This document shows, piece by piece, positions 12,988-33,610 of a DNA stretch of 33,610 nucleotides; the stretch's first letter is position 1; each line of letters starts with the position of its first letter. The notes under the pieces were generated by a model, which was given only the letters and a program-made list of their open reading frames with translations, had not been told where the DNA came from and ran no database searches. The DNA is from a virus. The stretch spans positions 1 through 33,610 of the IMG/VR virus record IMGVR_UViG_3300032240_001203. One strand, given 5' to 3'. The translations under genes and the position numbers were made by a program.

Positions 12988-13336
12988 ACTTGCGGCGTTT
13001 CACGAGGATGTTTCTTAGACTCAGCCTTGTTCTGATGTAGTTTTGTCGTTCAGCTGGCGTTAGCTCGTGCTTTGCTGCCTTGATTATGCGGCGGCGGATC
13101 TTGTTAGCTGCGTCATCGCCATGGTCAAAGAGCATGTTGCAGATATAATTAAGGTTGCATGGGGTAGGGGTATCGAGAAAGAAGAACCGCTCCAGGTCTC
13201 TTCTCCAACAGAATTCTAACTCGGTGCCCATAATGTAGTCGGCGATTGCTCGTTCGATTACTGCGAGCCAGAGGTTACGCTCGGGGACGTTGTGAGATTC
13301 TCCCTCCAGGTCTCTGAACTCTTCCCATAGTTTCAT
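12980..13336 (-). CDS. Hypothetical early protein, 118 aa
   Basis: ORF with an ATGA overlap to the upstream VRR-NUC gene; its stop overlaps the convergent plus-strand gene by 8 nt. Confidence 0.65.
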   Translation of the reverse strand: MKLWEEFRDLEGESHNVPERNLWLAVIERAIADYIMGTELEFCWRRDLERFFFLDTPTPCNLNYICNMLFDHGDDAANKIRRRIIKAAKHELTPAERQNYIRTRLSLRNILVKRRKFN

Positions 13337-13716
13337 AGTTTATTAGCAAGATACTTATCGAGTGCTTCCATAGCCTCGGCGGCTGACCAGCAGAGTATGG
13401 CATAGTTTCCGACTGAGTTTAGATGCTTTAGTAAAGCAATCTGTTCAGGCGAAGGTTTATTGGGTTTTACCTTCATCTCGATATAGAGGGAATGATACTT
13501 GTCATTGGGCACCGGAACGCAAATATCAGGGATGCCTTTTTTTACTCCGGCTTTAGCCATTGTGATGCGGCGCTGAACGGATGCCTTGCGCTCATTGGGT
13601 ATATGGTATGCCAGGGCGTATGCTGGCTTAACATGAGCCATAGCACGGCAATAATCGAAGAAAGCAATCATCTGCAATTCTTCGGGTCCGTGCTTGAATT
13701 GTCGTCTAGGGGGCAC
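13333..13716 (-). CDS. VRR-NUC domain nuclease, about 127 aa (start uncertain: GTG at 13716, or an internal ATG 15 codons in)
   Basis: GIPDICVPVP...SLYIEMKVKPNKPSPEQIALLKHLNSVGNYAILCWSAAEA fits the VRR-NUC D...E.K core plus the Q...G tail. Confidence 0.75.
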   Translation of the reverse strand: MPPRRQFKHGPEELQMIAFFDYCRAMAHVKPAYALAYHIPNERKASVQRRITMAKAGVKKGIPDICVPVPNDKYHSLYIEMKVKPNKPSPEQIALLKHLNSVGNYAILCWSAAEAMEALDKYLANKL

Positions 13717-13718
13717 TG

Positions 13719-13949
13719 TTATCGTTTAGCGTAGGTCTCGCCTCGCTCTTCGGCGGCGCCTTGGACCTTCTCACGCTTCTCTTGCGCCATGGTCTCATTC
13801 TTGTGTGGAGACTTCTTCTTCTTTTTGGTTACGCCCTTGATGGAACCTTTGTTCTCGCTGGCATAGAACACGGAATCTCCCTTTTCTTTGGAACCGTAAA
13901 ACTCTTCCATCTTTTCTCTGATCTTGAGACCCTTCTTATTGAGCGGCAT
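13719..13949 (-). CDS. Small Lys-rich basic protein, 76 aa
   Basis: CAGGAGAG SD 3 nt upstream of the ATG; lies downstream of a promoter-like element. Confidence 0.65.
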   Translation of the reverse strand: MPLNKKGLKIREKMEEFYGSKEKGDSVFYASENKGSIKGVTKKKKKSPHKNETMAQEKREKVQGAAEERGETYAKR

Positions 13950-21529: not shown

Positions 21530-21605
21530 TGAGGTGTAGTTCAGTTGGTAGAACAGGCGGCTGTTAACCGCCATGTCGCAGGTTCGAGACCTGCCACCTC
21601 AGCCA
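21530..21605 (+). tRNA. tRNA-Asn (anticodon GTT at 21563-21565), CCA encoded
   Basis: Hand-folded cloverleaf: acceptor TGAGGTG/CACCTCA, D stem GTTC/GAAC with a GG loop, anticodon stem GGCGG/CCGCC with loop CTGTTAA, T stem GCAGG/CCTGC with loop TTCGAGA, then G-CCA. Confidence 0.93.
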
Positions 21606-21614
21606 ATTAACATT

Positions 21615-21815
21615 ATGGGCATTGAGCATAGTTTCAAAGAATCAGAACATACCCGCAGATGCCCTTGGTGCAAGCATATCAGCACCGTATTCACTCAGGA
21701 TGGTAGAGACTACTATTTCTATTGCCAGAATCCTAAATGCTCCGTAGAGCGTATATATGGCGATAACGCAGTCATGACTACTGGCCATAAGGTTATAACT
21801 CAAACAGATGAGTGA
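21615..21815 (+). CDS. Zinc-ribbon small protein, 66 aa, overlapping the terL start by 8 nt
   Basis: CPWC ... C.NPKC. I moved the start to the first ATG outside the tRNA, because the track start at 21573 lies inside the tRNA T-arm. Confidence 0.5.
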   Translation: MGIEHSFKESEHTRRCPWCKHISTVFTQDGRDYYFYCQNPKCSVERIYGDNAVMTTGHKVITQTDE

Positions 21816-23622
21816 GATTGAAGAACGCATAGTCTGGTCTCCCCAGCCTGGCGCTCAGGAGATGCTTGTTCATTGCCCTATTACGCTTATAGGCTTTGGT
21901 GGTGCACGAGGCGGGGGTAAGACCGATGGGGTTCTAGGTAAGTTTGCTATCCTTCAACAACAGCTAGGAGAATCGTTCAATGCCATCTTTTTTCGTAAAG
22001 AGCTTCCGCAAGCTGATGACCTTATTGAACGAGCTAAGCAGATTTACTTGCCGCTTAGGGCGCATTGGCAAGACCAAAAGAAGCAATTTACTTTTCCGAA
22101 TGGAGCCCGACTCCGCTTCAGACCTCTTGGTGACGATTCGGACGCTGAGAAGTATCAAGGACAGAACCTATCCCATGCTGCTGTTGAAGAAGCCGGAAAT
22201 TACGGAGATCCTTCTCCTATCTGGAAACTGTTTGGAGCTTTACGAGGTAAAGGAAAAGGACAAGTAGTACTTACCTTTAATCCAGGCGGCGTAGGGCATC
22301 ACTGGCTTAAAGAGCTGTTTATACGCCCCGCTCCAATGGGGAAAAAGATTCTAACCAAGGTGTTACCCAATGGCGCTAGTTTTGATTACATCTACATTCC
22401 AAGCCGCATAGCCGATAACCAAATACTTCTTGCTCAAGATCCTGAGTACATAAACCGATTGCACATGGTAGGCTCTCCTGAGCTTGTTCGTGCATGGCTA
22501 GAGGGAGATTTTGAAATACATGAGGGCTCGTACTTTCCTGAGTTCAGTTCACGCCACATTATTCAACCTTTTAACGTACCTAAGCACTGGCCTAGGTATC
22601 TTGGTTATGATTGGGGTTTTCGTAGTCCTTTTGCTGCTGTCTGGGGTGCTGTTAGCAGCGGAAGGGATGATTACGGTAATGAGGTCCCATACCCAAAAGG
22701 AGCCATCATCATTTACCGAGAAATGTGGGGCAAAGGCGTCGACAATGTGGAACAGGCGAATAGGATTGCGGCGGCTTCGGTTGGTGAAAACGTCCACGCA
22801 GCAGCAGACCCAAGCATCTTCAATACCCAAGGCGGACCAAGCATAGCCGATCAATTCCATACGGTGTTTGCTAAATACAAGCACCCTAACTTTAGACCTG
22901 CCGACAACGACCGACTCTCCGGCTGGGCGCAGATAAGACAGAGGCTAGTCGCAAAGCCAGCCTTGCTATATATTTTCGCTAACTGTCCCTATTTGCTTGA
23001 GACCTTACCGTCCATGACCATTGATAAGAAGAAACCAGAGGATCTGGATACTTCTGGCAATGACCATGTATGTCTGACAGGCGATACCCTTGTTATTACA
23101 GATTCAGGTCCGCTTCCAATCAAAGACCTTTGCGGAAACTTTAGCGGCTTTGTTCTTAGCCATAATGGATATTACCAAGAGGCTTGTGGCGCACTTACTC
23201 GCAAAGCAGCAAAAGTTATAACGCTTACTTTTGATGATGATACACAGGTTACTTGTACTCCTGACCATCGCTTTATGCTTGCCGATGGCACATTCAAAAA
23301 AGCATGTTTATTGACATATTCTGATCTGATGCAATGCGTTACATCAGAACTGCAAAATGTCCGCTCGCCGAAGACGGTTAAATCCATTGTTGAAAGCGAA
23401 ACCCCGCAAGATGTCTATTGCTTGAATGTGCCAGAAACAAGTACCTTTGTTCTTGCTAATGGTATCGTGTCCCATAATTGCGACGCCTTGCGCTATTTGT
23501 GCAAAGAACGCTTGATAGATAGTAAGTGGGAGCAGCCAGCAGAAGTATTTAACAAGGGAATTATTAGACTTCAGGCGTATATTGCTCAAATGCGAGCACA
23601 ACGAGGCAGACCCACAATATGA
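21808..23622 (+). CDS. terL: Terminase large subunit precursor, 604 aa, interrupted by a mini-intein
   Basis: Walker A GFGGARGGGKTDG near the N-terminus. After removal of 23071-23478, the C-terminal nuclease motif SGNDHV-CDALRYL is restored. Confidence 0.9.
   Translation: MSEIEERIVWSPQPGAQEMLVHCPITLIGFGGARGGGKTDGVLGKFAILQQQLGESFNAIFFRKELPQADDLIERAKQIYLPLRAHWQDQKKQFTFPNGARLRFRPLGDDSDAEKYQGQNLSHAAVEEAGNYGDPSPIWKLFGALRGKGKGQVVLTFNPGGVGHHWLKELFIRPAPMGKKILTKVLPNGASFDYIYIPSRIADNQILLAQDPEYINRLHMVGSPELVRAWLEGDFEIHEGSYFPEFSSRHIIQPFNVPKHWPRYLGYDWGFRSPFAAVWGAVSSGRDDYGNEVPYPKGAIIIYREMWGKGVDNVEQANRIAAASVGENVHAAADPSIFNTQGGPSIADQFHTVFAKYKHPNFRPADNDRLSGWAQIRQRLVAKPALLYIFANCPYLLETLPSMTIDKKKPEDLDTSGNDHVCLTGDTLVITDSGPLPIKDLCGNFSGFVLSHNGYYQEACGALTRKAAKVITLTFDDDTQVTCTPDHRFMLADGTFKKACLLTYSDLMQCVTSELQNVRSPKTVKSIVESETPQDVYCLNVPETSTFVLANGIVSHNCDALRYLCKERLIDSKWEQPAEVFNKGIIRLQAYIAQMRAQRGRPTI
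23071..23478 (+). mobile_element. Class-1 mini-intein, 136 aa, with no homing-endonuclease domain
   Basis: Block A CLTGDTLVITDSG..IKDL, block B TCTPDHRF, blocks F/G VYCLNVPETSTFVLANGIVSHN, followed by a +1 Cys. Confidence 0.85.
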
Positions 23623-26398: not shown

Positions 26399-29300
26399 TG
26401 AGTTATAAGTTTAACCCGTTCACTGGCACATTCGATATTGCGTCATCTCCAGGCGGGTCTACTACTCAAGTACAATTTAATGATGGTGGTTCATTTGGCG
26501 GGGCTAGCCAACTTACTTACGATAAAACTAAATCGTTTACTGGAGTGCAGCAATCTTCGCCTTCAGCTCCATTGCACGTTACTGGTGCTATTGGCACACA
26601 GATCCCTGCACCAACTACATTTACCGCAACACTCGTTGAAGATGTTCCGGTTACGTCTCCTACCAGCGGATCTGTATCCCCAAATTATGGTCCGACAACG
26701 CCTGGAGTTCCAACCGTATCGTTAATACAAATTGATTACATTAATAATTGTACACCTAATCAAAACACTTCTTCTGGGGGTAATTATACGTGTAATGGGC
26801 AAACAATTAACTATCGAATTTATGCTTATAAATTGATAGGTGGGATCAGAGTTTGTACTTCTTCTTATTACAGTACTAGTTTTACTGATACAATTAATGA
26901 TGGGAGTACGCAGTTCAAAGTAGATCTTACTGGATTTACTGCGCCGTATTCGAATCTTGACGGAGTTTTAGTTTCCAAGAGTTTTGATGGTGGCTATACA
27001 TGGCCATATTCCGTGGATGCTGGCTATAACTCATCTTATACAGACGATAATTTTACAAGCACGGATGCTTTTGAAGTATCTCAATATACAGAATCCGGTG
27101 GGAACTGGGATGCATATGTATCGCAATATCAGTTATTTAATGGAACTCCATATACATCTAATTATGATACTAATTACGCTACAGATAGCAACACAGGGCA
27201 AGCTCTAGTTATTTCTGTAACTCTTGCAACTCCCACTACTGCTGATGGATTTATGATCCAACAGCATGATGGTTTTTATCGAGATATTCATACTGGTACT
27301 AGTTATTTTGATTGGGGAAGCACCAATGGACTCGTACCGTCATTTTCTTCCTTTAGTAGCATTGCTTTTCCAATAATGAACACCAGTCTTACTGGCTCTT
27401 CATCTACATCTGCTTCATTCGGATATGGTAGCGGTACATATAATGCTACAGGCAACACTTGGAGCATCAGCGTTTGGGAATATAGGGTTCATCCAGAAAC
27501 CAGCCAGCAATGGTTTGTTTCGACTCCCAATACTTACAGTTTGGGAACTGACGACGGAAGCAATAACTCATTTGTTATCTCGTGGAGCACTTTGCCTGGA
27601 GATGGAACTGGTAGATATGTAGTTGTCAATCAGAATGGAACAGACATCTATGAAGAAGATGTCAGCAGTAACACAAGCGGAAACATTGCTGGATTTGGCA
27701 CTGTTTCATCAAAGCAAGACATATCCTCTTTTACTGGAATTTACCGAGCTTTTGGTTTATACGGGAAAGTAGTTTCTCCCGCAGTTAAGTATTCAAACAG
27801 TGGTTATACTTATAGTATTTCCTGTCCAAATTCAGCTCCATATATTTTACTGCATTCATTGCCTTCTGGAGGTAATGCAACAAACTTCAAAATTGTTGAA
27901 ACATCATACCGGACTGGTTCTGTTTATGATGCGGCAGTTGTATCTAACTTTTATCAATTTTTAACTGGTGTTGGTTCAAGTACTGTAACTCCTAATACAC
28001 TCGGGTTTTTAAGTAATGGAACGAATCTCAATCGAATCTATGCTGCATATTCATCACAAAGTGCGTTCGGTGTAACTGCTTATTCAGCAACTCCAATTAC
28101 TGTAACAACAACAGATCCAAGCAATAATAAATACTATGTTGTGGTATTGGCATGGGCCAGCATCGCCCAAGGTCAGTATAAACTAAAGCGGACAATTGGA
28201 GCATCTGTACTATATCACATTGAGGGAAATACAACCTATACCGATACAACAGAAGCTGCTTGGGCAGACAGTTCAACGCTTACTCCAACTAGCATTCCTA
28301 CAACGGGTGCGATTGTAGAGCGTAGTTGCACATCCACTAGTAACCCTGGCACATTAACTATCCGCAATACATATCCATCATATTTGAATTATGCGGTATT
28401 TGATTCTGTTTCTGGTGGTGGTTCTATATCTGAAGGCGGGCGATTTGGAATTGATGGATCTGCTCAATTCTTTGTGCAAAGTTATCCTGGTAATCTTCTA
28501 ATCAAAACACCAACTGGTACTTCCGCTATTGTTGGCGCACAAACCTATTTGAATTATGAAAATTCCTATTCGGGAGTATTGGGATTCAAAGGCGGAAGTG
28601 GTGGATGGGTTTCATACTTTAGCGCATCTTATGATACTGCTTATTTTGGAACCAACGGAGCGTGGTCATATTCAGATCCGCAATCATCCGTATGCATTGC
28701 TCCAAAAGATGGAAGTGATGTTGCACTACTAATATCCCCGAACCCATCAGCACCAGATCAAACTGGTGCTATTAAAATTACCAATTCCTCACTAACAATT
28801 AAATGGCTTGTTACTAACGATGGTAGAACTGCTATCGGGACTGGCGGCACAGGTAACGGAATTCTTTGCATTGGAGCAGGAGATGCTAATAACGCATCAA
28901 TTCAACTAGCAGCTTCGTCTAGTGTTCCTAATGTAATTGGTGGAATCTTACGATATGGGAATGATTTTTTCGGTGGCGATAATTTGGGAACAATGCGTAA
29001 GTTTTCCTTTGTGCCATCGTCATTTACAGCAAACAGTTTTGCGTATCTTGATGGCACTGGGGCTTTAGTAGCAAACAATAAGCTGTACTGGAATGGCTCA
29101 TATCTTGGTGCAACAACATTAATGTTGTTTGCGGCTGGGCTTTCTATATCAGCAAGTCAATCGATTTCCATGGGAACTGGAGCTTCGATCTCGGGTGGCA
29201 TTATATTCAATTATGCTGCTAAAAGCGCAAACTACACTGTCGCACCTGGTGACTATTGCATCAATGTTACTGCATCAGGGAAAACAATTACATTGCCAAC

Positions 29301-29481
29301 TGCGGTAAGTAAGACTGGGCAGATTTATGTAATCAAAGCCACGCATACGACTGGCACAACCACGCTCAATACCACATCGAGTCAAACAATTTTTACAACT
29401 TCAGCCGTTACTAGCATTACTATGAATGCTGGCGATACGGTGAGAGTTATGTCTAATGGTACAAATTGGATAGCAATATAA
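26398..29481 (+). CDS. Large tail-fibre/receptor-binding-like protein, 1027 aa
   Basis: The N-terminus (MSYKFNPFTGTFD) is typical of fibre proteins. Ser/Thr/Asn/Tyr/Gly-rich beta composition. C-terminal small beta domain (...GQIYVIKA...VRVMSNGTNWIAI). Confidence 0.65.
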   Translation: MSYKFNPFTGTFDIASSPGGSTTQVQFNDGGSFGGASQLTYDKTKSFTGVQQSSPSAPLHVTGAIGTQIPAPTTFTATLVEDVPVTSPTSGSVSPNYGPTTPGVPTVSLIQIDYINNCTPNQNTSSGGNYTCNGQTINYRIYAYKLIGGIRVCTSSYYSTSFTDTINDGSTQFKVDLTGFTAPYSNLDGVLVSKSFDGGYTWPYSVDAGYNSSYTDDNFTSTDAFEVSQYTESGGNWDAYVSQYQLFNGTPYTSNYDTNYATDSNTGQALVISVTLATPTTADGFMIQQHDGFYRDIHTGTSYFDWGSTNGLVPSFSSFSSIAFPIMNTSLTGSSSTSASFGYGSGTYNATGNTWSISVWEYRVHPETSQQWFVSTPNTYSLGTDDGSNNSFVISWSTLPGDGTGRYVVVNQNGTDIYEEDVSSNTSGNIAGFGTVSSKQDISSFTGIYRAFGLYGKVVSPAVKYSNSGYTYSISCPNSAPYILLHSLPSGGNATNFKIVETSYRTGSVYDAAVVSNFYQFLTGVGSSTVTPNTLGFLSNGTNLNRIYAAYSSQSAFGVTAYSATPITVTTTDPSNNKYYVVVLAWASIAQGQYKLKRTIGASVLYHIEGNTTYTDTTEAAWADSSTLTPTSIPTTGAIVERSCTSTSNPGTLTIRNTYPSYLNYAVFDSVSGGGSISEGGRFGIDGSAQFFVQSYPGNLLIKTPTGTSAIVGAQTYLNYENSYSGVLGFKGGSGGWVSYFSASYDTAYFGTNGAWSYSDPQSSVCIAPKDGSDVALLISPNPSAPDQTGAIKITNSSLTIKWLVTNDGRTAIGTGGTGNGILCIGAGDANNASIQLAASSSVPNVIGGILRYGNDFFGGDNLGTMRKFSFVPSSFTANSFAYLDGTGALVANNKLYWNGSYLGATTLMLFAAGLSISASQSISMGTGASISGGIIFNYAAKSANYTVAPGDYCINVTASGKTITLPTAVSKTGQIYVIKATHTTGTTTLNTTSSQTIFTTSAVTSITMNAGDTVRVMSNGTNWIAI

Positions 29482-29489
29482 AAGGTATT

Positions 29490-29624
29490 ATGAACATTGA
29501 CCAAGCACTACAAGTGGTAGCACAAGCAGCACAATCGGCATCGTTGCCATATCAAGCGCATCTTCAAGTACAAGAAGCATTAAAAGTGATTGTTGAAGCT
29601 CTCAAGGAAAAGCAAAATGGCTAA
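29490..29624 (+). CDS. 44-aa helical micro-ORF (below the ORF-track cutoff)
   Basis: AAGG lies 4 nt upstream of the ATG. The stop TAA (29622-24) overlaps the ATG of the next gene at 29617. It fills the gap after the fibre gene. Confidence 0.45.
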   Translation: MNIDQALQVVAQAAQSASLPYQAHLQVQEALKVIVEALKEKQNG

Positions 29625-29919
29625 CATTACATTCAACATTTCCGGCACATTCCCAGCAGAAGATGTGCTAGTATTCGCTAAATCACGAGGCTATCAAGAA
29701 GTTTTGCCGGATGGTTTGGATGATGATGGCAATATTAAAACAAAGCCAAATCCAGAAGCGCCAGAAGTATATGTCGCTAAATACATCAAAGATTATCTCG
29801 TAAAAGAGATTGCTGGAGTTAGTGAGGCTAAGATTCGGTCTGAATACGAAACTCAGCTTAAGGCTAGAATTAGTGGACTTTATAATTCGGTCAAAGGGAA
29901 TGTTAGCGTAAAAGTGTAA
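29617..29919 (+). CDS. Hypothetical protein, 100 aa
   Basis: I prefer the ATG at 29617 to the TTG at 29590, which has no SD and lies inside the micro-ORF. Confidence 0.6.
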   Translation: MANITFNISGTFPAEDVLVFAKSRGYQEVLPDGLDDDGNIKTKPNPEAPEVYVAKYIKDYLVKEIAGVSEAKIRSEYETQLKARISGLYNSVKGNVSVKV

Positions 29920-29976
29920 ATGCTTTTATTTTTTAAGTTGCTGCAAAGCTACTTGCAGGTGCAACTGCGGAGATAG
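29920..29976 (+). pseudogene. 18-codon remnant duplicating the 5' end of gene 30499-30996 (MLLFFKLLQSYLQVQLRR*)
   Basis: 39/48 nt identical to 30499-30546 by hand alignment. Five of the nine differences are synonymous. It ends in a TAG 4 nt before the nuclease ATG. Confidence 0.6.
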
Positions 29977-29979
29977 TAG

Positions 29980-30495
29980 ATGGGTCAGTTTAATCAGCCA
30001 CGAGCACGATTACCCACTTTATCTGACCGTCCCATTACATTCGCCAGCTATGCGGAGTATGCGGCGGGAATGTTGCTAGAGCGTTACATTGGCGATTATG
30101 AATTGAAAATGGGACACACGTTTCAAGTTCCAATAGGTTACAATAAACAATGCGACTTTTTAATTAATGGCGTTTTTGTGGAGTTTCATCCCACTAACCT
30201 AAAGCACGAGTTTTCGGACCGACAAGCGGCCAGGCAATTTGGCGAAGCATTGCGGCACGTCGCTAATCCGTTTCGAGAACGAATAGTAAATGCTGTTAAG
30301 AATGAGCTTGCGGAAAAATACTATGAACGACGTAAGTTTTTAGTGTCGATGCATGCAGGCAAAGATTCAGAATTAATCGTTTGTAAGAATCATATCGATC
30401 TATACCAATCAGTTATTAAACGGTTTGGGGTTGGATATCCAAAGCAAGCAAATTTTATAAATGAGTTTGATGCGCTAGCTCGGCAAAGGTTTTAA
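29980..30495 (+). CDS. Restriction-endonuclease-fold (Vsr/DUF559-like) nuclease candidate, 171 aa; possible free-standing homing endonuclease
   Basis: SYAEYAAGMLLE ... Q.PIGYNKQCDFLINGVFVEFHP matches the S..E ... Q...DF...(h)E.(h)H layout of Vsr-like/PD-(D/E)xK nucleases. Preceded by the 5'-end duplicate at 29920-29967. Confidence 0.45.
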   Translation: MGQFNQPRARLPTLSDRPITFASYAEYAAGMLLERYIGDYELKMGHTFQVPIGYNKQCDFLINGVFVEFHPTNLKHEFSDRQAARQFGEALRHVANPFRERIVNAVKNELAEKYYERRKFLVSMHAGKDSELIVCKNHIDLYQSVIKRFGVGYPKQANFINEFDALARQRF

Positions 30496-30498
30496 GAT

Positions 30499-30996
30499 AT
30501 GTTTTTATTTTTTAAGCCGCCGCAAAGCTATTTGCAAGTTCAGTTGCTTGATCCCGACGGTCCGGCAAAACGTAAAGCCATTGATCTTGAAGAAGCCTAT
30601 GCGATTAAGATTCTTCAGGAGCGGCAAGCTAAGCAAAAGGCTAAGCGCAAAGAAGCTAGCTTTAAGGCGAAGATTAAGAAGCAGCTGGAAGAGGGCAAGA
30701 CCGCCGTTGAAGTAGCCGCTGAGCTTACTCAAGAAATAATAGCTGAGGAGCCAAAGTTTGAGTTTACCGAAGAAATGCGAGCCGATGTTGCTCGTATTAT
30801 GGCAGAATATGAGCGCCAGGTAAGACTTGAAACTCAGGCAATGGTAATTGAGTTCGCTAATCAGCTTGCTCAAACAACGGCATTACTAGAGGCAGAACTT
30901 CAAAGACGAATAGAAGAAAAGCGACGGCGTAGGATTAAGCGCAATCGTATTAAAGCACTGATTCTGTTTGCTTCAATGGATGATAACGATGAGTAA
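30499..30996 (+). CDS. Charged coiled-coil protein, 165 aa
   Basis: ORF in the operon; Lys/Glu/Arg-rich helical sequence; its 5' end is duplicated at 29920. Confidence 0.6.
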   Translation: MFLFFKPPQSYLQVQLLDPDGPAKRKAIDLEEAYAIKILQERQAKQKAKRKEASFKAKIKKQLEEGKTAVEVAAELTQEIIAEEPKFEFTEEMRADVARIMAEYERQVRLETQAMVIEFANQLAQTTALLEAELQRRIEEKRRRRIKRNRIKALILFASMDDNDE

Positions 30997-31306
30997 GTAT
31001 AAGCTATTTCAATGGTGCCCGATTCAGGAAAAAGTAGTTCCTGTAGAGGATGTAATGGTGCGAGTTCATGCTAATGCGGCGCACATGTTTATTCACGATG
31101 AAATGCCGCCAACTAGAAACCCGCTTAACCCTAAAGAAATTTATACAAGCAAAAGTAAATTACGAGCAGCATATAGGGCTGCTGGTGCAATCGAAGTAGG
31201 TGACGCATACGACCGTGGTTATGACCCCGCAAAGGAATCAAAAGCACGAGAGAAACAAATGGTTAAAAGCCTGATGCAACAGGTAAAAGAGAGGATGAAT
31301 GGATAA
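30989..31306 (+). CDS. Hypothetical protein, 105 aa
   Basis: The ATG at 30989 overlaps the upstream stop by 8 nt; the track start at 30968 is a non-ATG codon. Confidence 0.55.
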   Translation: MSKYKLFQWCPIQEKVVPVEDVMVRVHANAAHMFIHDEMPPTRNPLNPKEIYTSKSKLRAAYRAAGAIEVGDAYDRGYDPAKESKAREKQMVKSLMQQVKERMNG

Positions 31307-32363
31307 TGTAGAAACTGGTATTGTAGAAGATTCTTCCAGCACTGAAATTGTTCCTGAGCGTACCCAGGAGAAATTAAGCATCCGAGATGCTCTCGATAAG
31401 GCATTTGAAGAAGCCGATAAAAAGGCAGCTGAAGAGGAGGATGATACCCCTGAAGCTGATGAGGAAGAGGATAAAGCTGAGGAAGTAGAAGCCGCCCCTG
31501 TTGAGGCTAAGCCGGAGCGAATCCCAGTAGTCCCACCTGCGGACATGAATAAGGCTGAAAAGGAAGCGTTCCTTAACCCCACGCCCGAGAACGCCTATAT
31601 CCTCCAACAATACATGAACCGCCGGGCTTATGAGACTAGGACAGATTACCAGCGCAAGATGCAGGAGGTTGAGCAGCTCAAGTCTCAGACCTCTGGTATT
31701 TACGATACCATCAAGCAATACGAAAACGATTATGCTCGTGAGGGTATTTCCATAGGCGATATTGCTAAGCGGTCGATCGCTTGGGATAAGGCTATGAAGT
31801 CCAACCCAATTCAAACAGCGATTGAATGGCTCGATTCCTATGGAGTTAATCTTAACGACCTTGCTTCTTATCAGCCTCAGGATGGCTATCAGCCGCAGCA
31901 ACCGCAGGGGCAATACCTAACTCGGGAAGAGGCTGAACGCATCGCTGAAGAGAAGCTACAAGCCGCACAAGTCGAGCAGCAGAAAAATGCCGTTGCCTAC
32001 TATAACGAGCGTATTGTAGAATCCTTTGTAGCGGCTAAGCCCTTATTTAAAGATCCTGAAACAGCTTCGCAGTTAGAAGCTGAAATGGCTCCGATAGTAA
32101 GTGCGTTGACGAGCACAGGCAAATATAGCTCTCCCGAAGAGATCCTAGAAACTGCCTATAACTACGTCGTAGCTGGCAACCCGACCTTTTCCAGTCTCAA
32201 TCAAGCTATGACTGCAAGGCCGGCGATAGAACAAAAACAAGCTGCCGTGCAAAAAGCAAAGGCGGCTTCTAGGTCAATATCTGGCTCTGCTGGTTCAGGG
32301 ACTCCCAGAATGCAAATTAAAGACATACGGGACAATCTACGCCGACGCATGTCAGGTGAGTAG
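31299..32363 (+). CDS. Scaffolding protein candidate, 354 aa
   Basis: Immediately upstream of the major capsid gene; highly acidic N-terminal region and a helical Q/E/A-rich body. Confidence 0.55.
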   Translation: MDNVETGIVEDSSSTEIVPERTQEKLSIRDALDKAFEEADKKAAEEEDDTPEADEEEDKAEEVEAAPVEAKPERIPVVPPADMNKAEKEAFLNPTPENAYILQQYMNRRAYETRTDYQRKMQEVEQLKSQTSGIYDTIKQYENDYAREGISIGDIAKRSIAWDKAMKSNPIQTAIEWLDSYGVNLNDLASYQPQDGYQPQQPQGQYLTREEAERIAEEKLQAAQVEQQKNAVAYYNERIVESFVAAKPLFKDPETASQLEAEMAPIVSALTSTGKYSSPEEILETAYNYVVAGNPTFSSLNQAMTARPAIEQKQAAVQKAKAASRSISGSAGSGTPRMQIKDIRDNLRRRMSGE

Positions 32364-32414
32364 CTAAAGATTAGCTATAGGTTGTCCCGAAATTAACTTT
32401 TAAGGACAACTAAA

Positions 32415-33374
32415 ATGGCAAATCTTGAGGAAGCACTCGTTGCAACCCTCTTCGACCAGTCGGACAACATTGCGGACGAGGTGCTCCACCACAACCCGCT
32501 TTTGAAGACTCTGGACGATCAGGGTGCTATTCGTAAATTTTCCGGCGGTTACGAGCTTCGTAAGCCGGTTATGTACAATGATTCAGCTGTAGGTGGATTC
32601 TACGCTGGATTCAGCTCGTTCAATCTTAATGCTATCGATGATTCGACTGCATTTAGGTTCGCTATCAAGCAGGTTTATGAGCCTGTAGCAATCAGCGGAC
32701 GTGATCGCCGAGCTAACCGAGATCAGGCTATGTTGCTTGACCTCGCTGAGATGAAGATGAAGGCAGCTATCAGCCGTCTTAAGAATACCGTTTCTACCTC
32801 GCTTCGTGGCGATGGAACAGCAAGCGGAGGACTTGAGTTTGACGGTATCAAGAAGGCTGTATCGTCTTCTCCATCGTCTGGAACTTATGGTCAGATCGAC
32901 CGTACTTCCAATAGCTTCGCTCGTAACCTTGCTGTAACTGGAGTTACCTTCACAGCAGCAAACGTACAAGAGCAACTCACCGATGCTATCAGCCAGATCG
33001 TGCGAGGAGATGAGCAGCCTGACCTTGGTCTTATGGACCGTACGGCTTGGAAGTTCCTCCACAGCTCGCTTACTGCAATTCAGCGTATTCAGCTTCCGGT
33101 TAAGTCCGCAACGGCTGGATTCCGTAGCTTGCAGTATGACGGCGTAGATTTCGTATTCGACGGCGGATACGGCTCAAGTGTTCTTGAGTCCAACACCTGC
33201 CGACTTCTGAATACGAAGTACTGGAGCTTCGACATGGTTCGAGGAGCTGACTTTAAGCCTCTCGCACCTGAGATGAATCGCCCTGTTGACCAGGATGCTT
33301 TCTTCACGGTTATCATCGTTGAAGGAAACCTCTGTTGTGCGGCACCGGCTCTTCAAGCTTATGTTGGCGCTTAA
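32415..33374 (+). CDS. Major capsid protein, 319 aa
   Basis: The scaffold-capsid-small protein-terminator order, and a size typical of HK97-fold coat proteins. The family was not identified by search. Confidence 0.7.
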   Translation: MANLEEALVATLFDQSDNIADEVLHHNPLLKTLDDQGAIRKFSGGYELRKPVMYNDSAVGGFYAGFSSFNLNAIDDSTAFRFAIKQVYEPVAISGRDRRANRDQAMLLDLAEMKMKAAISRLKNTVSTSLRGDGTASGGLEFDGIKKAVSSSPSSGTYGQIDRTSNSFARNLAVTGVTFTAANVQEQLTDAISQIVRGDEQPDLGLMDRTAWKFLHSSLTAIQRIQLPVKSATAGFRSLQYDGVDFVFDGGYGSSVLESNTCRLLNTKYWSFDMVRGADFKPLAPEMNRPVDQDAFFTVIIVEGNLCCAAPALQAYVGA

Positions 33375-33390
33375 TTAAGGAGGAAACACT

Positions 33391-33610
33391 ATGTCACGTT
33401 CTGGATCATTTGGCGTAAATTACAAGAAAACCTACGGAACTGCTCCGTCGATCAATGAGGCTGTACTCGGCGATCTTGGATCAAATCCTGAAGGTGAGTA
33501 CGTATATGTTCAGGCTGCTTCGTCAGTCGCTCAATACGATGCTGTAGCCATCTCCCGTACTTACACAGTAGCGTCTCTGACGACTACGACTGCTGGTAGC
33601 AATACTTTGC
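33391..33610 (+). CDS. 5' part of a 161-aa Ala/Gly/Thr/Ser-rich virion protein (possible capsid decoration/cement protein); continues at window position 124 after the overlap
   Basis: ATG at 33391 lies 7 nt after AAGGAGG. The frame is continuous with the 120-389 track ORF once 33488-33610 is superimposed on 1-123. Sits directly downstream of the major capsid gene. Confidence 0.6.
   Translation, partial: MSRSGSFGVNYKKTYGTAPSINEAVLGDLGSNPEGEYVYVQAASSVAQYDAVAISRTYTVASLTTTTAGSNTL
33488..33610. repeat. Second copy of the 123-bp terminal overlap
   Basis: Identical to 1-123. Confidence 0.95.

Follow-up and report, generated by a model that had tools for sequence, protein, structure and literature searches.

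Free-standing homing endonuclease genes of T4-like phages (seg and mob; intronless homing) are intergenic open reading frames (ORFs) that lie between conserved genes, have a precise empty site, are closer between genomes than their surroundings, lack a promoter of their own, co-convert flanking markers and adjoin recombination boundaries (PMC2988022). Here we describe a locus that resembles them in these respects, its flanks being compatible with co-conversion, in an uncultured freshwater phage, represented by a 33.6-kb contig (IMG/VR IMGVR_UViG_3300032240_001203) that was analyzed over its whole length of 33,610 nucleotides (nt), hereafter the window. The locus is centered on ORF N, which encodes a protein of 171 amino acids (aa) and lies between a small gene that follows the tail-fibre gene (U) and gene D. 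The first 16 codons of D occur twice, as the true start of D (copy B) and as a diverged copy upstream of N (copy A). Our comparisons indicate that N moves between phages and suggest that it entered this lineage by one-sided repair, perhaps through the action of a homing-like nuclease encoded by N itself. In contrast to the T4-like genes, N lacks GIY-YIG and HNH motifs as well as a DNA-binding module, and nt 1-69 of D in N carriers show no protective sequence difference.

One-sided entry has a precedent in the T4 td intron, for which homing with one exon missing proceeds by illegitimate double-strand-break repair on one side (Parker, Belisle & Belfort 1999, summarised in PMC2988022). As presented in that summary, the td case shares with our locus homology on one side (here D), a microhomology junction on the other (here the pentamer ACTGC on the U side) and ectopic invasion; it is a laboratory system with an intron, whereas N represents a natural event, an intergenic ORF and a diverged 48-nt partial gene duplicate. 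Homing endonuclease genes (HEGs) have further been found at exchange boundaries, in ‘HEG islands’ with fragments of cargo genes that were proposed to be recombination substrates (Barth, Dunham & Seed 2023, PMC10055350). Here too a nuclease-like gene lies at the edge of a conserved, exchanged tail-fibre block, and the adjoining small ORF is a fragment of a full-length neighbour; the protein family and the phage group differ, and the junction of the N locus can be read to the nucleotide by means of an empty site and several haplotypes. Finally, partial gene duplicates flank homing endonuclease ORFs in fungal mitochondrial atp6 and cob (PMC6279837), again pairing a mobile endonuclease ORF with a diverged partial copy of the adjacent gene. 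There the duplicates are C-terminal, the genomes are those of organelles and the LAGLIDADG or GIY-YIG ORFs are often degenerate, whereas the N locus has a duplicated 5' end in a phage and an intact ORF. Nuclease genes at exchange boundaries with gene fragments, intronless homing and one-sided repair in T4, and the fungal partial duplicates are already known; what is new is the N protein family and a nucleotide-level natural history in uncultured freshwater phages, a clean case and not a new principle.

The repeat and the empty site

The locus consists of the following parts.

29617..29919, + strand: gene U, 100 aa, the small gene after the tail-fibre gene, from the ORF list; its TAA abuts copy A, and the same 100-aa gene is present in L088/L091 and L257-L260.
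29920..29979 (D-derived part 29920-29967), + strand: copy A, remnant of D codons 1-16, which together with cassette sequence forms an 18-codon ORF; TAG TAG stands just before the ATG of N.
29964..29968, + strand: ACTGC junction microhomology, shared by D codons 15-17 (CAACTGC/TTGAC) and by the 3'-terminal sequence of U', the donor-type upstream gene (ACTACTGC/GGAGA); seen at the junctions of the window, L001, L042, L083 and L074.
29964..30498, + strand: N cassette as shared between phages, 535 nt; it starts with the 16-nt leader ACTGCGGAGATAGTAG, which contains the ribosome-binding motif GGAG, continues with the N ORF and closes with 3 nt of spacer.
29980..30495, + strand: ORF N, 171 aa, 516 nt, of a family without annotation; predicted PD-(D/E)xK-like nuclease core.
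30499..30996, + strand: gene D, 165 aa, the functional copy, from the ORF list; copy B (30499-30547) is its true start, and its closest homologue is P0035 (99% identical).
About 29859..30513, + strand: tract departing from the empty-site relative, comprising the 3' end of U, copy A, N and D nt 1-15, as delimited by the mismatch map, the identity profile and the mosaic haplotypes in L256-L260.

Positions 29920-29967 and 30499-30546 are identical at 39 of 48 nt, and a repeat search extends the pair to 49 nt (29920-29968 and 30499-30547; 82% identity, spacing 579 nt). This similarity exceeds chance: the second-best ungapped 48-mer match to copy A on both strands of the window is 26/48, and the best match in 100 Markov-simulated windows is at most 30/48 (binomial probability 7e-16 per position). 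Copy A begins ATGCTTTTATTTTTTAAGTTGCTGCAAAGCTACTTGCAGGTGCAACTG on the base directly after the TAA of U, and its ORF (translation MLLFFKLLQSYLQVQLRR) ends in TAG TAG, abutting the ATG of N. Copies A and B differ by five synonymous codons (11 and 13-16) and by three non-synonymous ones (2, 7 and 8; F2L, P7L and P8L), the latter accounting for four nucleotides, all of them transitions. The first-pass annotation of the window had placed the repeat at these coordinates with 39/48 identities, five synonymous changes among nine differences and an ORF of 18 codons, and all of these values hold on recount.

The nearest homologue of D (99% identical) lies on a 17-kb contig, L088/L091, in which the 100-aa gene U ends in ...GTCTAA and is directly followed by ATGTTTTTATTCTTC..., with no N between them. 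The first-pass annotation had predicted a relative with such a direct TAAATG junction. L091 is 99.0% identical to the window over 30499-33505 and 95-100% identical over the remaining shared backbone. Between these, identity is 100% at 29690-29789 and 97% at 29790-29889. The mismatch map has no entry in 29690-29858, then positions 29859, 29880, 29889, 29902 and 29916 and eleven mismatches in copy A. Past N, positions 30510 and 30513 are the sole differences before a background of ∼1% sets in; beyond its first 15 nt, D shares 99% identity with the empty-site relative. We read the tract 29859-30513 as imported or converted sequence. The clustered mismatches and the mosaic flanks described below are compatible with co-conversion, and also with ordinary recombination.

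The two copies of the D start relate differently to this relative. Copy A matches the L091 D start at only 37/48 positions, whereas copy B has two differences (30510, 30513) in the first 81 nt. Copy B is thus essentially the empty-site allele, and copy A together with the last ∼61 nt of U is foreign to the L091 backbone. In the real D starts examined, codon 2 is invariably TTT and codons 7-8 are invariably CCN CCN; copy A alone has CTT, TTG and CTG. Its unique changes hit residues that are invariant in real D, and copy A is a decayed remnant of a D 5' end, formerly coding and not derived from an L091-like backbone. The synonymous pattern and the low match to L091 agree with the earlier proposal that copy A was once a translated D homologue. 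Its synonymous variants (TAC, CAG, GTG, CAA, CTG) are each present in D genes of genomes without N and represent lineage polymorphism, not adaptation. The suggestion that the wobble differences protect the locus from self-cleavage is therefore not upheld: the variants also occur as standing variation where N is absent, copy B hardly departs from the empty-site allele, and D nt 1-69 can match with or without N.

A second suggestion, that of a 579-bp mobile cassette that brought donor flanking sequence, is retained for the moving cassette and for the donor flank (mismatches at 29859-29967, 30510 and 30513), but its bounds change: the shared cassette is 29964-30498, and the 579 bp (29920-30498) are the formal insertion relative to the empty site. 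Origin of the L091 arrangement by deletion between copies A and B was considered and rejected, since D nt 12 and 15 are C in L091 and T in each of the two window copies; it is also disfavoured by more distant U-type contigs in which U abuts D. Empty sites of the U' type exist as well (L074, L092 and L105, without N).

We also rejected, in agreement with the first-pass annotation, a transposon or insertion sequence (IS), since there is no transposase domain and the direct repeat (49 nt, 82% identity) consists of coding sequence, its copies bearing different lineage markers. A group I or II intron or an intein was likewise rejected: Rfam returns only a tRNA and no intron RNA in the window, and N lies between a stop and a start codon, out of frame with D.

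The L091 comparison shows a separate host-range module swap at 26597-29689, where identity is 40-75% per 100-nt block (mostly 55-75%). It covers the tail-fibre body, a 52-aa ORF and the first third of U, and its right end lies 170 nt to the left of the N tract.

Junction anatomy and haplotypes

In the common context (L001, L042, L083, L099, L112 and L113), N follows the 109-aa gene U', whose sequence shows no relation to that of U. The U'-type junction reads ...GACGCAGCCACTACTGCGGAGATAGTAGATGGG (also given as ...ACTACTGCGGAGATAGTAGATG), with U' overlapping N by 14 nt, and U' genomes without N read ...GACGTACCCAGTGCGTAATGTTT, stop and start overlapping as TAATG (L074, L092, L105). The window junction reads ...CAGGTGCAACTGCGGAGATAGTAGATGGG (also given as ...CAACTGCGGAGATAGTAGATG) and intact D reads CAACTGCTTGAC. 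Comparison of the window, the U'-type genomes and intact D thus places the switch from D to the U'-type cassette within the pentamer ACTGC. In L117 and L118, ∼25–37 nt of the U'-type 3' end precede N behind a different gene. The right cassette boundary is sharp in all contexts (0-3 nt past the stop codon), and the left boundary lies 16 nt upstream of the start codon. Scans of metagenome and viral collections for the left junction of N returned only U'-type and L117/L118-type contexts, and further contigs with copy A were found solely by an exact-protein look-up with U.

This look-up located the U / copy A / N arrangement in five more contigs from other samples and independent projects (L256-L260). 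L257 (Logan) is 100% identical to the window over 6.2 kb, and L258 (ENA), L259 and L260 (both JGI) span U, copy A, N and D. The window and the five contigs represent five haplotypes.

Window and L257: copy A is allele A1; the D start after N is L091-like except at nt 12 and 15.
L258: copy A is A1; N has a different 3' end, and the D start behind it is identical to the L091 allele.
L259: copy A is A2, intact MFLIFKPPQSYLQVQL, with overlapping TAATG, identical to A1 nowhere but in its last 15 nt and at the junction; the D start is exactly the L091 allele.
L260: copy A is A1; the D start is of U' type.
L256: copy A is A1; the D start is not covered, and the contig ends within N.

L260 looks like the primary recombinant, with U and copy A in front of N and a U'-type D behind it. 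An assembly artefact, that is, a chimeric contig that joined two strains at shared sequence and thereby produced the duplication, would draw on the fact that several strains with different flanks share N within single samples and that assemblies break inside N (L256 and L109, 123 identical nt). The complete U / copy A / N / D arrangement is, however, spanned by independent contigs of different projects (L257, L258, L259, L260), and this recurrence of the same junction rules out the artefact for practical purposes; we assign it a negligible chance.

The overlap itself is of interest: the last 123 nt of L256 are the first 123 nt of L109, inside N; both contigs come from JGI sample 3300032332, and their backbones are very different beyond this point. 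The assembly evidently broke because several strains of one sample share N, which is indirect evidence that phages with different N contexts coexist in one sample.

The 18-codon frame of copy A is open in all six contigs, the divergent L259 included. N is probably translated by coupling, from the U stop codon through the copy-A mini-ORF to TAGTAG-ATG, and would have no promoter of its own; no promoter-like or terminator-like site was detected on the + strand between 29300 and 31100. One could therefore imagine that copy A was retained as a short leader ORF that couples translation of N to U, serving a regulatory role and not being a passive scar. The abutting ATG and TAG TAG, the open frame and the absence of such sites would all suit this idea, as would the coupling of N in U'-type genomes through the 14-nt overlap with the U' end. 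We nevertheless regard it as quite improbable, because descent from D accounts for the whole copy-A sequence, the peptide is not conserved (A1 and A2 differ at 5/16 residues, and A1 alters residues that are invariant in D), the coupling can be seen as a by-product of the junction position, and the arrangement is limited to one small lineage.

Beyond the junction, U'-type genomes are 80-100% identical (mostly >90%) through U', N and the first ∼60 nt of D, after which identity collapses in several independent pairs. The fibre-U' block is 93-100% identical between U'-type genomes that are otherwise 20-80% identical downstream, and flanks are mosaic in L256-L260. Because identity collapses past N and the flanks are mosaic, the U/U'-N-D region is a recombination hotspot. 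Gene D is itself mosaic: its first 21 codons are conserved across lineages, a breakpoint lies at nt ∼60–72 (window 30559-30570; L001, L042, L083, L089), and D variants switch abruptly in several genome pairs (L042, for example, is L089-like from nt 66).

Spread of N among phages

Over 29964-30560, the window and L001 share 89.3% DNA identity, compared with 66-73% in the large terminase (TerL), portal and capsid genes. Within the cassette (29964-30498, 535 nt), identity to L001, L042, L083 and L099 is 91-94%, and blastn similarity ends exactly at 29964. Synonymous divergence (dS) of N between the window and these genomes is 0.22-0.40, that of the capsid gene is 1.06-1.25, and genes D and E and the scaffold gene are saturated. 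N is carried by 3 of 80 phage loci with capsid proteins 84-92% identical to that of the window, and a pattern scan for D starts returned eight haplotypes with N and twelve without, behind at least five different upstream genes. Copies that are 85-88% identical occur in a further type of phage (L117, L118), where N likewise follows a tail-fibre gene and a small gene. As N is closer between genomes than its flanks, patchily distributed and found in at least four contexts, these comparisons indicate that it is horizontally mobile.

Paralogues of N (49-71% identical) occupy a second site in many relatives, at the end of an early RecT/ERF operon and just upstream of a VRR-NUC or PDDEXK_15 nuclease gene. 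The window has no family member at this early site, and neither do ∼20 of 30 comparable loci; some contigs have neither site occupied, and no contig with two family members was seen. No duplication like copy A was seen at the early-site insertions of the paralogues. The VRR-NUC gene of the window is located at 13333-13716 (- strand), adjacent to a 76-aa gene at the empty early site (13716-13722).

N is under strong purifying selection (ratio of non-synonymous to synonymous divergence, dN/dS, 0.04-0.13), and all late-type copies are intact and encode the full-length 171 aa. Such constraint would be expected if N were an ordinary accessory or semi-essential gene, encoding a recombination, repair or DNA-processing nuclease or an anti-defence factor, which makes no homing cut and was moved passively as general and illegitimate recombination shuffled the tail-fibre modules of co-infecting phages, copy A being an exchange scar. 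We consider this the main rival to a homing-like origin, possible but not probable. It accommodates the finding of never more than one family member per contig, though sites vary, and the fact that early-site paralogues without exception adjoin a VRR-NUC or PDDEXK_15 gene where the RecT/ERF operon ends; genomes with neither a late nor an early copy exist, however, and N is hence dispensable. N moves together with the fibre-U' block in U'-type genomes, and the window and L091 also differ by the separate fibre-module swap, as passive carriage would have it, but in the window N moved without the fibre-U' block. The tight cassette boundary, retained in four contexts, and the recurrence of breakpoints no farther than ∼60–70 nt from the N end, as expected if breaks occur there, also speak against mere shuffling.

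The N protein family

At E ≤ 0.001, 442 cluster representatives (∼440 clusters, 50% identity) belong to the N family, which no library names. Searches of Pfam, PHROGs, NCBIfam, PADLOC and the PDB with N paralogues and long fusion relatives gave nothing usable, and tblastn of N against GenBank phages returned no match. Seven residues (Ser-23, Glu-26, Asp-59, Glu-68, His-70, Tyr-114 and Arg-118) are invariant across 72 members that share a mean identity of 28%. AlphaFold models of N (predicted local distance difference test score, pLDDT, 88.9) and of a 40%-identical paralogue (pLDDT 87.0) have the same order of elements: helix 24-36, strands 48-51, 57-62 and 65-69, helix 98-126 and strand 132-135 (LIVC), with two short helices between strand 65-69 and helix 98-126. 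The predicted core, in which a helix and three strands precede a long helix and a fourth, hydrophobic strand, follows the PD-(D/E)xK order as defined in PMC3424549. In the model, Glu-26 is located on helix 1, Asp-59 on strand 2 and Glu-68-x-His-70 on strand 3, where His replaces the Lys of (D/E)-x-K.

A Foldseek search against the PDB placed the catalytic domain of I-Bth0305I (PDB ID 3r3p) on top for both models, with values that are not significant (E = 2.0 and 2.6, probability 0.08, target-length template modelling (TM)-score 0.39-0.42). Against BFVD the best match (E = 0.12) is not significant either, and the weak viral matches are rich in homing, VSR, DUF559 and restriction endonucleases. 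Profile searches of the PDB with N recovered neither Vsr nor 3r3p, whereas Vsr itself recovers 3r3p at E = 4e-4.

I-Bth0305I and Hef belong to the EDxHD/Vsr-like family, of which free-standing phage members exist and whose criterion is BLASTP E < 1e-3 to the Vsr catalytic domain (PMC3239194), a similarity that N does not reach. N is like this family in its top PDB fold match and in the conserved order of Glu (helix 1), Asp (strand 2) and then His. It differs in that it has no significant Vsr similarity (fold E-values 2-2.6), no invariant residue corresponds to the final Asp of the composite motif E...D...x...H...D (Tyr-114 and Arg-118 are invariant instead), the spacing Asp-59–Glu-68–His-70 is shorter than in I-Bth0305I, and the N-terminal NUMOD or helix-turn-helix (HTH) domain is missing. 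N lacks two of the features that define the EDxHD family.

The first-pass annotation had called N a Vsr/DUF559-type nuclease. The positions it had picked (Ser-23, Glu-26, Asp-59–Phe-60, Glu-68, His-70) are invariant or near-invariant in the 72 homologues, but the comparison with the Vsr profile is negative and the top fold match has E = 2-2.6, so that this call is weakly supported. Fold recognition, which it had put forward as a check, gave a nuclease-like core order and I-Bth0305I on top in two models, with no significant match. From the conserved residues and the predicted fold we consider N likely to be a nuclease. Some relatives (P0160, P0175, P0209, P0227, P0228 and others) have the N domain at the C terminus of 370–740-aa proteins, the N-terminal parts of which show only sub-threshold HTH similarity.

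Origin of the arrangement

On balance we favour the view that N is a free-standing mobile gene, most likely for a small PD-(D/E)xK/Vsr-like endonuclease, which behaves like a homing endonuclease and left a one-sided repair scar in the window. In several related freshwater phages N is located at the right edge of the tail-fibre module, between U' and the conserved D 5' end. During a mixed infection it would have entered a lineage with the unrelated upstream gene U. Repair or recombination on the D side would have used homology, and on the other side, where homology was lacking, the broken end of the recipient would have been joined, via ACTGC, to donor sequence at a point 16 nt ahead of the N start codon. 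If that end still bore D codons 1-16, the recipient's own D start would have been left upstream of N as copy A, and copy B, which is a complete D start, now lies downstream of it. Copy A has since gained three amino-acid changes at otherwise invariant residues, and subsequent homologous exchanges may have reshuffled both flanks, such that the window is near-identical to an N-less relative downstream of N. The window arrangement accordingly needs at least two events, a one-sided entry that made the copy-A junction and a later homologous exchange of flanks. N would cut N-less genomes near the D start, and cutting would drive the transfers; we infer a break near D nt 48-70, which would account for the end of copy A, for the recurrent D breakpoint and for the location of N just upstream.

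Several results weigh against this view. N itself has no match in sequence or profile searches of Pfam, PHROGs, NCBIfam, PADLOC and the PDB; hhalign of the 72-member profile gives a probability of 0.35% against E. coli Vsr and about 1% against a VRR-NUC profile (66 sequences), and all Foldseek E-values are 0.12 or worse. N is predicted to form a single structural unit of 171 aa with no recognizable DNA-binding module, unlike most phage homing endonucleases. No immunity signature was seen: D nt 1-69 are identical in L109, which carries N, and in L105 and L074, which do not, and any target would hence have to span the insertion point, or protection would have to work otherwise. That N is intact, under purifying selection and never seen with a second family member in one genome fits a useful phage gene as well as a selfish one, and the early-site paralogues always stand beside a resolvase-like (VRR-NUC or PDDEXK_15) nuclease gene. 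The order of events, moreover, is deduced from a handful of haplotypes. The lack of a target-site immunity signature and of a DNA-binding domain also speaks for passive carriage as an accessory gene, whereas the weak fold matches, which point specifically to homing endonucleases, speak against it.

A further variant of the homing-like reading, which we hold to be unlikely, is that copy A and the downstream D start serve as portable homology arms (D nt 1-48 on the left, D on the right), with which N could enter any phage that has the conserved D 5' end, whatever its upstream gene.

Other features of the window

Terminase, portal and major capsid genes can be identified in the window. The capsid protein is ∼33% identical to those of its nearest cultured relatives (e.g. 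Mx8 and a Bradyrhizobium phage), and window positions 29400-31400, used as DNA query against GenBank phages, returned no match. A tRNA-Asn (GTT) at 21530-21605 (+ strand), the sole Rfam or ARAGORN match in the window, lies ∼200 nt ahead of the terminase gene (21808), and a single small ORF separates the two. TerL of the window (21808-23622, 604 aa) has no intein at ∼23343, whereas the large terminase gene of L091 (760 aa) contains a ∼465-nt intein (Pfam Intein_splicing; L091 2755-3221), a second mobile-element polymorphism between the two. A 21-nt inverted repeat (29701-29721 in U and 30551-30571 in D, 81% complementary) flanks the cassette and has a perfect core of 10 nt (GTTTTGCCGG and CCGGCAAAAC); such a repeat is about what chance would give in a 2.5-kb region. 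A foreign base composition of N was considered and rejected, its GC content of 41.7% being unremarkable against 44.8% for the window.

Implications

If the portable-arm variant were true, an intergenic nuclease gene would become an element within a conserved gene that supplies a replacement 5' end, without an intron or intein, and the N enzyme would also represent a new homing endonuclease family (∼440 clusters) distantly related to Vsr/EDxHD. If N is a site-specific nuclease, it would found a widespread homing endonuclease family of ∼440 clusters at 50% identity, members of which are now annotated as ‘hypothetical’ in environmental phage genomes. The locus provides a natural, nucleotide-level record of an invasion with one homologous flank, including the microhomology join, the stranded fragment and the reshuffling of flanks, a kind of evidence hitherto obtained chiefly in the laboratory by crosses with T4. 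The cassette lies at the right-hand boundary of the tail-fibre modules that are exchanged in an abundant group of uncultured freshwater phages and thus bears on the movement of host-range modules among them.

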